Of a stretch of DNA of 7,111 nucleotides, positions 3,422-7,111 are shown piece after piece. The DNA is taken from IMG/VR virus record IMGVR_UViG_2585427777_000007; one strand, 5' to 3'. Origin of the DNA: a virus. Lineage: Duplodnaviria; Heunggongvirae; Uroviricota; Caudoviricetes. The notes beneath the pieces were generated by a model, which saw only the letters and a list, made by a program, of their open reading frames with translations, was not told where the DNA came from and made no database searches. Made by a program: the position numbers and the translations under genes. Every line of letters starts with the position of its first letter. Position 1 is the stretch's first letter.

Positions 3422-4022
3422 TTCGTTGTTACCACCATCAGCCAGCAATTTCATGCGTTGTGCCGAAGCCGTCGGAACACGCATTACAGACATTCCGGTA
3501 GACCTCAACACGTTGTGGTCGCCGGACACCTGCCCGGTGCATCTGCTGCCTTATCTCGCCTGGGCGTTTTCCGTTGACCGCTGGGATCGCAACTGGCCGG
3601 AAGAGACAAAGCGACAGGTAATTCGTGATGCATGGCTGATACACCGACACAAAGGGACCATCAGCGCACTGCGAAGAGCCGTGGAGCCTCTCGGCTACCT
3701 GATTGAAGTAAAGGAGTGGTGGCAACTCAATGAGGAGCCTGGGACATTTCGCATTGTTGTCGGAGTACTTGATCAGGGCATCACCGATGAAATGTATCAG
3801 GAACTTGAGCGCCTTATTGCGGATGCAAAACCAGTAAGTCGCCATCTGACGGGGCTGGCGATCAGCCTGAGTGTGAACGGAAAGATTTTCGTTGGTACGG
3901 GATGCTATTACGGCGACGCCCTGACGGTTTATCCCTACACCCCGGAGTCCATTATTGTCGAAGGGGATTATTTCCCTGCCCCGGCCATTCATTTAATTGA
4001 TAATCTGAGAGTAAACGCATGA
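3414..4022 (+). CDS. I: tail/baseplate protein I
   Basis: The ORF track frame starts at GTG 3381, but the ATG at 3414 overlaps the J stop (ATGAGTAA) and gives an MSNSLLPP... N-terminus like P2 gpI. Conserved ...WSPDTCPVHLLPYLAWAFSVDRWD... and ...ERLIADAKPVSRHL... segments. Stop TGA 4020-4022 overlaps the H start. Confidence 0.8.
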   Translation: MSNSLLPPSASNFMRCAEAVGTRITDIPVDLNTLWSPDTCPVHLLPYLAWAFSVDRWDRNWPEETKRQVIRDAWLIHRHKGTISALRRAVEPLGYLIEVKEWWQLNEEPGTFRIVVGVLDQGITDEMYQELERLIADAKPVSRHLTGLAISLSVNGKIFVGTGCYYGDALTVYPYTPESIIVEGDYFPAPAIHLIDNLRVNA

Positions 4023-5833
4023 CAGTGAAATACTACGCCATTCTGACTAATCAGGGCGCGGCACGACTGGCTAACGCGACGATGCTCGGCAGTAAGCTGA
4101 ATCTGACGCGAATGGCCGTTGGTGATGCAAATGGTGTGTTACCAACACCAGACCCTGCACAAACAAAACTGATTAACCAGAAACGCATTGCACCGCTGAA
4201 TCTTCTGAGTGTTGACCCTAACAATCAGAGCCAGATTATTGCGGAGCAAATCATCCCTGAAAGCGAGGGAGGATTCTGGATCCGTGAGATTGGTCTTTAT
4301 GATGATAAAGGTGTACTCATTGCGGTGGCAAACTGCCCGGAAACGTACAAACCGCAGTTGCAGGAAGGCAGTGGACGCACCCAGACTATCCGCATGATTC
4401 TGGTTGTCACGAACACCGAAGCCATCACGCTGAAAATCGACCCGTCTGTGGTTCTGGCAACCCGCAAATATGTGGATGATAAAATATCAGAGCACGAGCA
4501 GTCACGACGTCACCCGGACGCCTCGCTGACCGCAAAAGGCTTTGTTCAACTTAGCAGCGCCACCAACAGCACCTCTGAAACGCTGGCCGCAACACCGAAA
4601 GCGGTTAAGGCTGCATATGACCTGGCTAACGGGAAATATACCGCTCAGGATGCGACTACGGCACGAAAAGGCCTTGTTCAACTCAGTAGCGCCACCAACA
4701 GCACCTCTGAAACGCTGGCCGCCACACCGAAAGCGGTTAAGGCTGCATATGACCTGGCTAACGGGAAATATACCGCTCAGGATGCGACTACGGCACGAAA
4801 AGGCCTTGTTCAACTCAGTAGCGCCACCAACAGCACCTCTGAAACGCTGGCCGCCACACCGAAAGCGGTTAAGGCTGCATATGACCTGGCTAACGGGAAA
4901 TATACCGCTCAGGATGCGACTACGGCACGAAAAGGCCTTGTTCAACTCAGTAGCGCCACCAACAGCACCTCTGAAACGCTGGCCGCCACACCGAAAGCGG
5001 TTAAGGCTGCATATGACCTGGCTAACGGGAAATATACCGCTCAGGATGCGACTACGGCACGAAAAGGCCTTGTTCAACTCAGTAGCGCCACCAACAGCAC
5101 CTCTGAAACGCTGGCCGCCACACCGAAAGCGGTCAAGGCTGCATACGATCTGGCAAACGGAAAACAACCGGCAGATGCCACGCTCACTGCTCTGGCAGGA
5201 CTTGCCACTGCAGCAGATCGGTTGCCTTATTTTACCGGAGCAGACCGCGCAGCGCTGGCAACCCTTACAGCTATTGGTCGCGCTATTATCGCTAAGGGCA
5301 GTATAAAAGATGTCCTCAATTACCTTGGTTTAGGAGAAGGCTCGGCGCTACCCGTTGGTGTGCCTGTTCCGTGGCCCACCGCCACACCGCCAGCAGGCTG
5401 GTTAAAGTGCGACGGGCGCGCCTTTACAAAAGAACAATATCCTGTTCTGGCCAGAGCCTACCCGACCCTCCGTCTTCCTGATTTACGCGGTGAGTTTATC
5501 CGTGGATGGGACGACGGGCGCAAAGTTGATACGAGGCGTTCATTGCTAAGTGGTCAGGCTGCAACATTTATTCGTACAGCTTTGCAGGATTATTACGGTT
5601 ACGATCTGAATACTAATGTCAAAGTAGGTATCGCTTTTGCTACTGCTGATTCTGTTATAACCGTTGGAAACCCAGCTAATCCTAAAGCAGGAAATAATAG
5701 CGATTATGTTCCTGCATCAGCAGATAACTCCATAATGGGTACTCAAAGGACAGCGGAGGATAATTTTACCGGGGCATGGATATCAATGCGCCCCCGCAAT
5801 GTTGCGTTTAATTACATCGTAAGGGCCGCATAA
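4019..5833 (+). CDS. H: tail fibre protein H (P2-like N-terminal anchor, tandem fibre repeats, tail-collar-like domain, variable receptor-binding tip)
   Basis: ATG at 4019 overlaps the I stop (ATGA). 604 aa. N-terminal ~160 aa (...MAVGDANGVLPTPD...GGFWIREIGLYDDKGVLIAVAN...EHEQSRRHPDASLTAKGF) match the P2 gpH constant region. Then five copies of ...VQLSSATNSTSETLAATPKAVKAAYDLANGK..., the phage tail fibre repeat. The C-terminal ...PAGWLKCDGRAFTKEQYPVLARAYP...LPDLRGEFIRGWDDGR resembles a tail-collar domain, followed by a divergent tip ending RPRNVAFNYIVRAA. Confidence 0.9.
   Translation: MTVKYYAILTNQGAARLANATMLGSKLNLTRMAVGDANGVLPTPDPAQTKLINQKRIAPLNLLSVDPNNQSQIIAEQIIPESEGGFWIREIGLYDDKGVLIAVANCPETYKPQLQEGSGRTQTIRMILVVTNTEAITLKIDPSVVLATRKYVDDKISEHEQSRRHPDASLTAKGFVQLSSATNSTSETLAATPKAVKAAYDLANGKYTAQDATTARKGLVQLSSATNSTSETLAATPKAVKAAYDLANGKYTAQDATTARKGLVQLSSATNSTSETLAATPKAVKAAYDLANGKYTAQDATTARKGLVQLSSATNSTSETLAATPKAVKAAYDLANGKYTAQDATTARKGLVQLSSATNSTSETLAATPKAVKAAYDLANGKQPADATLTALAGLATAADRLPYFTGADRAALATLTAIGRAIIAKGSIKDVLNYLGLGEGSALPVGVPVPWPTATPPAGWLKCDGRAFTKEQYPVLARAYPTLRLPDLRGEFIRGWDDGRKVDTRRSLLSGQAATFIRTALQDYYGYDLNTNVKVGIAFATADSVITVGNPANPKAGNNSDYVPASADNSIMGTQRTAEDNFTGAWISMRPRNVAFNYIVRAA
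4535..5164 (+). repeat. tandem array of 132-bp (44-codon) repeats inside H: 4 full copies plus 1 truncated/diverged copy
   Basis: Unit starts at 4535, 4667, 4799, 4931 and 5063. Copies 2-4 (4667-5062) appear identical base for base by eye. Copy 1 differs at about 4 positions. Copy 5 diverges after about 85 bp and runs into unique sequence. Confidence 0.9.
5313..5338. other. candidate site-specific invertase crossover site (hix/gix/cix-like) at the H constant/variable junction
   Basis: TCCTCAATTACC TT GGTTTAGGAGAA is a 26-bp imperfect palindrome around an ACC-TT-GGT core. It resembles, from memory, the AAACC-NN-GGTTT core of Din-family sites, and it sits exactly where cassette homology begins. 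Not verified against a consensus. Confidence 0.3.
5327..5525 (+). repeat. direct repeat copy 1 (about 200 bp, roughly 90% nt identity to 5841-6040): conserved 5' part of the tail-fibre C-terminal cassette
   Basis: Aligns to 5841-6040 with scattered mismatches, from ggtttaggagaaggctcggcgct... through ...ggatgggacgacgggcgcaa. Encodes GEGSALPVGVPVPWPTATPPAGWL...LPDLRGEFIRGWDDGRK in both copies. Confidence 0.85.
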
Positions 5834-5852
5834 AAACGTTGGTTTGGGGGAA
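5827..5852. other. candidate site-specific invertase crossover site, second copy, immediately after the H stop codon
   Basis: CGCATAAAAACG TT GGTTTGGGGGAA has an AAAAAC-G-TT-GGTTT core at the start of the second cassette, in the same orientation as the 5313-5338 site. Not verified against a consensus. Confidence 0.3.
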
Positions 5853-6040
5853 GGCTCGGCGCTGCCCGTTGGTGTACCTGTTCCGTGGCCCACTGCCACA
5901 CCGCCAGCAGGCTGGTTACAGTGCAACGGAGCTACGTTCACCAAAGAACAATATCCTGTTCTGGCCAGAGTCTACCCGACCCTCCGTCTTCCCGATTTGC
6001 GCGGTGAGTTTATCCGTGGATGGGACGACGGGCGCAAGAT
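5841..6040 (+). repeat. direct repeat copy 2 (partner of 5327-5525)
   Basis: Same alignment as above. The offset between copies is 514 bp, so recombination between them would fuse the second cassette to H in frame. Confidence 0.85.
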
Positions 6041-6317
6041 TGACGAGGGGCGTAAGTTGCTTTCATGGCAGAAAGGTACACTGGTCGGCGGTCATGACGA
6101 TAACGATTCTTCGCTTGATATCTCGTACATGAGTAACGGAAATAATATTGACTATGGCGGCGATAAGGTGTTTGCGGGGAATTACCGTAGCGATTATTTG
6201 TGGTACGTAATTCTGGGTGGAACAAACAGTCGCGCAAAAGCCGAATTAAACGGAGCATTCTTTAACATAACCCGCCCCCGCAATATCGCGTTTAACTATA
6301 TCGTGAGGGCGGCGTGA
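5844..6317 (+). CDS. silent alternative tail-fibre C-terminal cassette (tail-collar-like domain plus different variable tip); no ATG or RBS
   Basis: Frame is open from 5823 to TGA 6315-6317; the ORF track's start at 5844 is a TTG with no Shine-Dalgarno. The first ~65 aa are about 90% identical to H residues ~441-505, the middle is unrelated, and the last 14 aa (RPRNIAFNYIVRAA) are again conserved. It is in a different frame from H, so it cannot be made by read-through. Confidence 0.7.
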   Translation: MGEGSALPVGVPVPWPTATPPAGWLQCNGATFTKEQYPVLARVYPTLRLPDLRGEFIRGWDDGRKIDEGRKLLSWQKGTLVGGHDDNDSSLDISYMSNGNNIDYGGDKVFAGNYRSDYLWYVILGGTNSRAKAELNGAFFNITRPRNIAFNYIVRAA

Positions 6318-6323
6318 TACCGT

Positions 6324-6938
6324 TCAACTGGCAAGTGCCAGTGGCGCTTCCGGCCAGCTGATTTCAGGTGCCGTGCTGATATCCAGTGCGTTCAGCTCGT
6401 CGATATAATCCAGCACGGCGTTCAGTTTTGCCGTTTCTTCTGGTGTCAGACTGCGACCAGCACGCAGTTTGAGGTTGATAAGATCGACTGACGCCATCGC
6501 CTGTTTCACCCGTTGCTGGCGTTGCTGTCTGGCAACCTCCAGTTCTGCGGCTCGCTGCCGTTCAGTATCGGTTACCCACGCCTCACCGTTCCAGGTATCC
6601 CATGGCGTGGCTGGCTGTTTTGTGGTGGTGTCCGCCGGGTAATCACCCGGTTGGGTAATCAGAACAGGGTTACCGTTCTCCGTGCTGTATACCGTCTCGC
6701 CGCGGTGATCAGGCACATGCTCCCACCCGTTCAGCGTGGCAGTCCGGCAAACCACGTAACCCGAAATTGCCTCCGGCGGTGCATCGGCGCACGAATGTGC
6801 CGGAGTACCCACCCCAAGGGCGAGATACTCCACAGAGGATGAGGTGTATTCCCGGGTTTCCTCGTCATAGTGATATACAGTGATATCGCCCGCTACAGTG
6901 GCGATACCGTTTTCATCCAGAACTGCAGTGTTACTCAT
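6324..6938 (-). CDS. tail fibre assembly protein (Tfa chaperone, lambda Tfa / P2 gpG family)
   Basis: 204 aa. ATG is the complement of 6936-6938, with GAGGG 7 nt upstream on the - strand. C-terminal ...YIDELNALDISTAPEISWPEAPL and central ...W.HV.DHRGETVY.....NGEAWVTDTE... parallel lambda Tfa (...RVDTSTAPDIEWPAVP; ...DHRGKTVY...WNGTAWVKDTE) as recalled. Convergent with the silent cassette, with only 6 bp between the two stop codons. Confidence 0.85.
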   Translation of the reverse strand: MSNTAVLDENGIATVAGDITVYHYDEETREYTSSSVEYLALGVGTPAHSCADAPPEAISGYVVCRTATLNGWEHVPDHRGETVYSTENGNPVLITQPGDYPADTTTKQPATPWDTWNGEAWVTDTERQRAAELEVARQQRQQRVKQAMASVDLINLKLRAGRSLTPEETAKLNAVLDYIDELNALDISTAPEISWPEAPLALAS

Positions 6939-7111
6939 TAAACTGCCCTCACAATGTAATTAAGTGCAATGCTACGGGGTCTGACAGTGATACCCTTCGC
7001 ATACCCGCTTCTGATAGAGGTCAGAATAGTAGCCTGCATACCATTGTCTGACATTGCCATGACAGGATTGCTGAATGTTGTCCCGTCCGGCATTTTAAAG
7101 CTGCCCTCACG
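6938..7111 (-). CDS. 3' end of a third tail-fibre C-terminal cassette (- strand), 5'-partial at window edge; stop overlaps the Tfa start (TAATG)
   Basis: The - strand frame is open from the window edge to TAA (complement of 6938-6940) and ends ...GITVRPRSIALNYIVRAV, homologous to the last 14 aa of H and of the silent cassette. There is an internal ATG at the complement of 7091-7093. It lies directly upstream of, and is coupled to, the - strand Tfa. Confidence 0.5.
   Translation of the reverse strand, partial: REGSFKMPDGTTFSNPVMAMSDNGMQATILTSIRSGYAKGITVRPRSIALNYIVRAV

Follow-up and report, generated by a model that had tools for sequence, protein, structure and literature searches.

Background

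In phages Mu and P1 there are two tips, and each has a Tfa of its own; T4 gp38 and lambda Tfa are interchangeable. In the T4 fibre protein gp37, domain D10 (residues 811–881 together with residues 1010–1026) has the collar fold of gp12, and domain D11 (residues 882–1009) is inserted into it (PMC6957217). gp12 itself requires gp57A and no chaperone of the gp38/Tfa type (PMC3004832).

The locus considered here lies in a window of 7,111 nucleotides (the whole stretch of DNA that was analysed), taken from a virus of the Caudoviricetes (IMG/VR record IMGVR_UViG_2585427777_000007). A sequence-only reading of this window had noticed a 14-residue motif at the C-terminus of each of three tail fibre tips, and had offered three possible functions for it: a docking site for the Tfa chaperone, a trimerisation cap, or a 3' homology block that allows tips to be swapped. 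We argue that these 14 residues are very probably the final beta-strand of the phage tail collar domain, the fold found in T4 gp12 and gp37.

Organization of the three tips

Gene H (positions 4019–5833, plus strand) encodes a tail fibre of 604 aa with matches to Pfam Phage_tail_fib, Phage_fiber_2 and Collar; in it an N-terminal domain is followed by five 44-aa fibre repeats and then by tip1. Every tip opens with a block of 67 aa (..GLGEGSALPVGVPVPWP..LPDLRGEFIRGWDDGR) that is 89–95% identical between tips, and divergence is confined to the middle 79–92 aa, where identity is 22–38%. The tips had been described as otherwise divergent; this is not so.

In tip1 the opening block (YLGLGEGS...GWDDGR) forms the N-terminal half of a collar (5321–5521, plus strand; Pfam Collar, PF07484). 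It is followed by a variable insertion of 89 aa, presumably the receptor-binding part (5522–5788, plus strand), and by the closing-strand motif RPRNVAFNYIVRAA, which occupies the last 14 codons of gene H (5789–5830, plus strand; stop codon 5831–5833). Tip2, also on the plus strand, consists of a 67-aa N-terminal collar half (5835–6035; Pfam Collar and AF2 pLDDT), a variable insertion of 79 aa (6036–6272), marked by divergence between tips and by low pLDDT (38–48) in the monomer model, and the motif RPRNIAFNYIVRAA (6273–6314), with which the cassette ends (stop codon 6315–6317). Tip3 lies on the minus strand and is cut by the end of the window: its last 57 codons are present, comprising the C-terminal part of the variable insertion (6983–7111) and the motif RPRSIALNYIVRAV (6941–6982; stop codon 6938–6940). 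The full 170-aa cassette was read from positions 7739–8251 of the E. coli locus L001, which is 98.7% identical.

Across the three tips the motif reads RPR(N/S)(V/I)A(F/L)NYIVRA(A/V), and in the three pairwise comparisons 13/14, 10/14 and 11/14 residues are identical. Presence and coordinates of the three copies had been given correctly, but the pattern first proposed, RPRN[VI]A[FL]NYIVRA[AV], fails at tip3, where position 4 is S instead of N.

The motif as the probable closing strand of a collar domain

All three tips match Pfam Collar (56.6 bits for tip1, 57.4 for tip2 and 57.9 for tip3 as read from L001; cut-off 24). The Pfam model has 57 positions and reaches the N-terminal half of the domain only, and this partial coverage lends the last strand the appearance of an orphan tag. 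The T4 gp37 tip (2XGF) was matched at E = 1.1e-15 with a single sequence and at E = 1.6e-22 with a tip2 profile; the profile match begins at gp37 residue 811 (residue 27 of the chain), and the C-termini of tip2 and of the gp37 tip align as RPRNIAFNYIVRAA / VKNIAFNYIVRLA (gp37 ends in ...NIAFNYIVRLA). Since D10 includes residues 1010–1026, the gp37 motif (residues 1016–1026) belongs to the collar. Homology to gp12 is weaker (E about 1e-5); the C-terminus of T4 gp12 is ETRPWNISLNYIIK (...RPWNISLNYIIK). The tip1 motif aligns with the C-termini of both T4 proteins.

The structure of tip2 was modelled with AF2 as a monomer of the presumed trimer, from an alignment of 88 sequences that includes diverse representatives; this model replaced an earlier, unusable one (pLDDT 46.5) built from a shallow alignment of 50 close homologues. 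The model is confident only for the N-terminal block and the final strand. At residues 11–50 pLDDT is 94–97, and a strand is modelled at residues 150–155, with a mean pLDDT of 92 for residues 151–157; over most of residues 83–133 pLDDT is below 50, and the middle part is unreliable. The best fold matches are gp37 and gp12.

That each cassette encodes one complete collar domain, split in sequence, is strongly supported: the chain runs through about 67 conserved residues, continues through the variable 79–92 aa out to the receptor-binding end and back, and finishes in the closing strand. The motif is conserved as a requirement of the fold, and so remains the same when the insertion varies. The predicted packing of the closing strand against the N-terminal half is supported by domain boundaries from the literature, by the alignment and by the pattern of pLDDT. 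Any insertion could be carried by the same scaffold because both of its ends lie in one small domain; the closing strand may in addition help to set the register of the three chains. The earlier proposal that the motif has a function independent of receptor specificity holds in general terms: the motif is an ordinary structural element of the collar – already known in kind – and no special tag.

Distribution of the motif

The motif recurs in homologous tips: 107 of the 120 closest database homologues end in it, as do some 128 in a set of 148 diverse representatives, a degree of conservation well above chance. Tip2 is aligned over at least 80% of its length by 304 phage records, and sampled rows of these matches, among them T4, Ralstonia and Synechococcus phages, extend to residues 150–157. 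At a threshold of E <= 1e-3, matches were obtained to 18,676 representative proteins. Between LPDLRGxFxRG and the motif the insertion varies in length from 50 to 184 aa (median 80, n = 214).

Cyanophage collar proteins carry ETRPRNISLMYIIKT at the C-terminus. Residues 146–303 of the phiTE short tail fibre (9CUY, 554 aa) align with the entire cassette and end in ENRPKNIAVMYIIK, and in giant proteins with two to five tandem collar modules every complete module closes, within the chain, on ..RPRN(V/I/L)A...(I)(R/K)A. As phiTE and the giant proteins show, the motif is not tied to the end of a chain.

Tfa and the closing strand

The tfa gene (6324–6938, minus strand) encodes a tail fibre assembly protein of 204 aa, with a match to Pfam Caudo_TAP (PF02413) of 98.8 bits against a cut-off of 22.1. 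It lies directly downstream of tip3, its start overlapping the tip3 stop codon (TAATG), and the codons GTG AGG GCA of the tip3 motif contain its ribosome-binding site, GAGG. Translational coupling of tfa is to tip3 only, and co-orientation with tip2 is never possible. Comparison of the Tfa sequence with PDB chains gave no meaningful match; TfaMu (5YVQ) was not detected.

Could the motif, alone or with the rest of the collar, be a docking surface through which the single Tfa folds all three tips? We consider this unlikely, even though several observations point towards it. The stop/start overlap that connects a motif-bearing collar tip to a Caudo_TAP gene, seen here at tip3, recurs in a Yersinia P2-like phage and in mEp213, and the Erwinia and Xenorhabdus tips have a Tfa gene directly next downstream. 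When the insertions of the associated tips are unrelated, Tfas are still 55–65% identical over the N-terminal 125 aa but only 27–32% over the C-terminal ~80 aa, a contrast that fits recognition of a shared tip feature; the fibre-binding domain of TfaMu is the N-terminal one (PMC9608196), and T4 gp38 has been proposed to draw the C-terminal ends of gp37 together (PMC3004832). Tips of the tip2 and cas146 types have their own Tfa in other elements, and therefore probably need one.

Against docking stands the fact that conservation of the motif is just as strong where a Tfa-type gene is neither close by nor needed: in T4 gp12, which depends on gp57A and not on gp38 (PMC3004832), and likewise in cyanophage collar proteins, in the STP4-a short fibre (a gp12 homologue) and in the internal modules of giant proteins. 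In all loci examined tfa follows a tip3-type cassette and no other. In the arrangement that fuses tip2 to H, tfa runs antisense to the late operon, and a crude promoter scan – a weak negative – found no sigma-70-like site to drive it in that state. Moreover, TfaMu binds the distal part of the fibre (PMC9608196), whereas the motif here is at the proximal base of the tip. Docking is not needed for conservation, since the motif closes collars that have no Tfa partner nearby; the conserved Tfa N-terminal domains nevertheless leave room for it. The variant residues of the tip3 tag (S4, L7, V14), considered as a mark of Tfa dependence, were set aside: in Erwinia, Xenorhabdus and Yersinia a Tfa gene also comes immediately after tips whose tag is canonical.

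A related proposal, which we hold to be distinctly unlikely, is that the single Tfa is a generalist, expressed in either orientation of the segment, whose N-terminal domain recognises the collar (N-terminal block plus closing strand) and not the insertion. If true, one chaperone gene could serve three interchangeable tips, and the closing strand would be part of a universal chaperone handle, which would explain the interchangeability of T4 gp38 and lambda Tfa.

Trimerisation and folding

Very unlikely, too, is that the motif is a trimerisation cap, or what is left of an intramolecular chaperone at the C-terminus from which folding is nucleated. Folding of fibres is believed to begin near the C-terminus (PMC3004832), and the C-terminus of each chain here returns to the trimeric collar. 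However, a stretch of 14 conserved residues falls far short of the known intramolecular chaperone domains (members of known families, of about 100 aa or more), the tips match no Pfam family except Collar, and the motif is found mid-chain as well. Against the cap speaks gp37, in which the corresponding residues belong to the collar domain, located where the tip begins at its base, and form no separate terminal cap (PMC6957217). A role of the motif in chain registration is possible.

Crossover sites and constraint at the DNA level

Two 26-bp crossover sites are present in the window. Site A, TCCTCAATTACC TT GGTTTAGGAGAA (5313–5338, plus strand), lies at the junction of the constant part of H and tip1; site B is CGCATAAAAACG TT GGTTTGGGGGAA (5827–5852, plus strand). 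Together with a third, site C in L001, they are located at the 5' ends of segments and fit TTC---AAAC- -A -GTTT---GAA, the Din-family consensus, which was taken from Table 3 of PMC3241671. The reverse complement of site B is identical at 24 of 26 positions to the p15B site mixMr''N' listed in the same table. In L001 tip3 is followed by a 190-aa protein with Resolvase and HTH_7 domains; the window ends before that position.

Other genomes contain the products of recombination at these sites. Recombinant junctions at site A were found at 100% identity: other E. coli genomes contain one such match each for the predicted H/tip3 and H/tip2 junctions, and strains p11A and p11B differ by an inversion between sites A and C. 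Tip swapping occurs at 5' crossover sites of Din type (Min-like). The putative invertase would then connect the constant H shaft with any of the cassettes, using the site that immediately precedes the collar, where L/V-G-L-G-E is encoded. An overlap between the tag and a crossover site was considered and rejected: of the tip1 tag no more than the final 4 nt, followed by the stop codon, fall within the left arm of site B, which is degenerate.

Within the tag, positions with the same amino acid in two tips have identical codons in 8/13, 4/10 and 3/11 cases, where codon usage by itself predicts 4.7, 3.4 and 3.8 (P = 0.05, 0.46 and 0.80), and the longest exact nucleotide run is 8–12 nt. In the 5' block the corresponding counts are 47/59, 54/64 and 49/62 (expected about 22), with exact runs of 38–85 nt. 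These data show that constraint on the tag acts at the protein level only. That the motif is retained as a 3' DNA homology block for tip exchange by homologous recombination is thus extremely unlikely: direct and inverted repeats of 35–52 nt are detected at the three ends, but these are only 74–81% identical, codon identity in the tag does not exceed what amino-acid constraint and codon usage predict, exact runs are far shorter than those of the 5' block, and the 26-bp Din sites at the 5' ends account for the isomers actually observed.

Significance

As a discovery the motif carries little weight, being a known fold element that lies outside the short Collar model of Pfam. Its use is practical: it marks the true 3' boundary of the collar-type tip module, and together with the 5' GLGEG junction it delimits a self-contained unit of about 155–170 aa for host-range engineering. 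How tips 1 and 2 are supplied with a chaperone in an inversion system of three tips and one tfa is of modest interest for chaperone specificity.

Comparison with known systems

The closest likeness is to T4 gp37 (D10 collar, D11 needle and head; 2XGF): in both, an N-terminal collar half is followed by an inserted receptor-binding hairpin and a returning C-terminal strand, and nine residues of the motif, NIAFNYIVR, are identical. The variable insertion of tip1 corresponds to the D11 needle inserted in D10 (PMC6957217). In T4, too, a Tfa-type chaperone gene (gp38) follows in the genome. Unlike that of gp37, which is about 130 aa long, the insertion here is of 79–92 aa and is without a long His-rich iron-binding needle; and while the gp37 tip is the fixed end of a gene, the tip here is a swappable cassette on a P2-type fibre. 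The collar/receptor-binding domain of T4 gp12 (1OCY, 1H6W/5LYE) is more distant in sequence.

Like TfaMu (5YVQ), the Tfa of the window is a Caudo_TAP protein with two domains, one N-terminal and the other C-terminal and helical. In this clade it is the N-terminal one that is better conserved – the reverse of the pattern across Tfa families in general (PMC9608196).

In its inversion system the locus resembles the Din-family segments (Min of p15B, Cin/C of P1, Gin/G of Mu and Pin/P of e14): 26-bp sites lie at the 5' ends of alternative 3' gene segments, and isomers occur in nature; in relatives a probable serine invertase is encoded beside the segment. There are more than two crossover sites, as in the multiple-inversion system Min of plasmid p15B. 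In contrast to the reference segments, the window contains neither the putative invertase gene nor the third site; and in contrast to Mu and P1, three tips are found here with one Tfa.

Collar domain and closing motif of the tips

The plus strand of the window encodes a P2-like tail module, in which the fibre gene H (4019-5833, plus strand; 604 aa) comes after the baseplate genes V, W, J and I. The H product has a Phage_tail_fib domain at its N-terminus, then five 44-aa Phage_fiber_2 repeats, then the Collar domain. Downstream of H lie a promoterless tip2 cassette (5844-6317, plus strand), the Caudo_TAP tail fibre assembly gene tfa (6324-6938, minus strand) and the 3' part of tip3 (6938 to the window end, minus strand). 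An E. coli chromosomal locus (L001), 98.7% identical across window 5200-7111, contains tip3 as a 170-aa cassette followed by a 190-aa serine recombinase (Resolvase and HTH_7 domains). The 44-aa repeats of the H shaft are encoded by a 132-bp tandem repeat (4534-5164; 4.8 copies, 98% identical); H in L001 is 664 aa long, and shaft length thus differs among relatives.

The sequence-only reading had placed a conserved 14-residue tag at the C-termini of three otherwise divergent tips. The coordinates are correct for tip1 (RPRNVAFNYIVRAA, 5789-5830, plus strand), tip2 (RPRNIAFNYIVRAA, 6273-6314, plus strand) and tip3 (RPRSIALNYIVRAV, 6941-6982, minus strand), and the proposed pattern stands except in tip3, which departs from it at position 4. 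The tips do not, however, diverge everywhere else: besides the tag (71-92% identity between tips), the first 67 residues are 89-95% identical, with 22-38% identity over the middle 79-92 residues.

In each tip, the match to the Pfam Collar model (PF07484, 57 positions) takes in the N-terminal block and goes no further. Among solved structures, the T4 gp37 tip (2XGF) was matched by tip2 at E = 1.1e-15 and by a 50-sequence profile at 1.6e-22; the match starts at residue 811 of gp37 and aligns the last residues of both proteins (RPRNIAFNYIVRAA and VKNIAFNYIVRLA). T4 gp12 ends in ETRPWNISLNYIIK. In gp37, residues 811-881 and 1010-1026 together make up domain D10, whose fold is that of the gp12 collar; the needle D11 (882-1009) is inserted between the two stretches (PMC6957217). 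Given these boundaries and the alignment of the tip C-terminus with that of gp37, the motif is the strand that closes the collar as the chain returns from the receptor-binding end. An AlphaFold2 model of tip2, built on 88 sequences, gave pLDDT values of 94-97 for residues 11-50 and 92 for the terminal strand, the region between being unreliable; the contact between strand and core is inferred from the domain boundaries, the alignment and the pLDDT pattern.

The tip profile found matches in 18,676 representative proteins: in about 128 of the best 148 of these matches the motif is the C-terminal end, and the inserted stretch that separates the conserved parts is 50 to 184 aa long. The cassette also aligns to residues 146-303 of the 554-residue phiTE short tail fibre (9CUY). 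In the database proteins P0121, P0130, P0133, P0137, P0171 and P0225 (2-5 tandem collar modules) complete modules each end internally in ..RPRN(V/I/L)A...(I)(R/K)A, and the motif is not confined to chain ends. Three independent checks – internal occurrence, breadth and structure model – agree with its identity as closing strand; the feature was correctly observed and is an ordinary one, a strand that closes a known domain. Proteins with 2-5 tandem modules (those six plus P0129 and P0214; 570-1667 aa) carry a separate insertion in each module and a separate closing motif in each complete one; they resemble a series of receptor-binding units linked in a single chain.

Tfa and alternative roles of the motif

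A single tfa for three tips (window 6324-6940) is translationally coupled to tip3: its start codon and the stop of tip3 overlap in TAATG, and tag codons supply its ribosome-binding site, GAGG. Every cassette examined uses AGG, a codon rare in E. coli, for the arginine of ..IVRA.. (5822-5824, 6306-6308 and, on the minus strand, 6947-6949; cassettes of L004-L006, P1-like phage-plasmids). In tip3 this AGG forms part of the GAGG site; where no tfa lies downstream, it may be left over from a time when the cassette was linked to one. In P1-like phage-plasmids a Tfa differing by one residue follows a tip3-type cassette, other cassettes there lacking tfa: the tip3-tfa module has therefore been transferred between P2-like prophages and P1-like plasmids. 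In these plasmids (L004-L007) the pair adjoins a cin-like invertase, beside the Tfa-less cassettes.

It is conceivable that Tfa recognises a feature shared by the tips, as the N-terminal 125 aa are 55-65% identical across Tfas of tips with unrelated insertions (C-terminal ~80 aa, 27-32%). This clade reverses the pattern described for Tfa families in general, in which the C-terminal domain is the conserved one and the N-terminal domain varies (PMC9608196). Related tips elsewhere also have their own Tfa: in Erwinia, a tip2-type cassette at 70% identity, and, in phage mEp213, the type of cas146, a Tfa-less cassette of P1-like plasmids. However, conservation of the motif does not require recognition by Tfa, the tag is not separable from the remaining collar as the recognised feature, and the motif is kept in T4-like cyanophage collar proteins and one gp12 homologue with no Tfa gene nearby. 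Moreover, crossover sites A(+), B(+) and C(-) allow four isomers, none of which has tfa in the same direction as an H-tip2 fusion – tfa is then always antisense to the late operon, as in strain Iso00225 (L003) – and a promoter scan found no promoter-like site for tfa. Docking of Tfa on the tag is unproven and, for a collar-closing strand, unnecessary. That the tag serves as a cap is unlikely.

Nor is the tag a recombination block, a reading rejected on codon identity at same-amino-acid positions, compared with expectation from the window's codon usage (pairs 1/2, 1/3, 2/3): across the 14 tag codons, nucleotide identity at the tip ends shows no excess beyond the amino-acid constraint (identical 8/13, 4/10, 3/11; expected 4.7, 3.4, 3.8; P = 0.05, 0.46, 0.80; longest exact run 8-12 nt). 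For the 5' block (70 codons) the counts are 47/59, 54/64 and 49/62 (expected about 22; P<5e-5; longest exact run 38-85 nt).

Crossover sites and inversion

Three 26-bp crossover sites fit the Din-family consensus: site A (5313-5338, plus strand) at the H/tip1 junction, site B (5827-5852, plus strand) over the tip1 stop codon and site C (L001 8243-8268, minus strand), inverted, in front of tip3. A mix site of p15B (mixMr''N') is identical at 24/26 positions to the reverse complement of site B (Table 3 of PMC3241671), and the cassette-side half-site GGTTTGGGGGAA encodes G-L-G-E. As the crossover point immediately precedes the collar domain, each cassette carries the domain whole. Each of the two predicted junctions, H|tip3 and H|tip2, has a single match at 100% identity among other E. 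coli genomes, and A x C inversion is the exact difference between strains p11A and p11B. The order in p11B (L002) is H-tip3-tfa(+)-tip2(-)-tip1(-), and that in p11A (H20) is the same as in the window. Iso00225 carries H-tip2 but lacks tip1; a deletion between sites A and B, which are direct repeats, would give this state, and so would an ancestral two-tip form. Because Din-type sites are accompanied by natural junctions and isomers, the tip system is a Min-like multiple-inversion segment; two of its sites are in direct orientation, as in Min.
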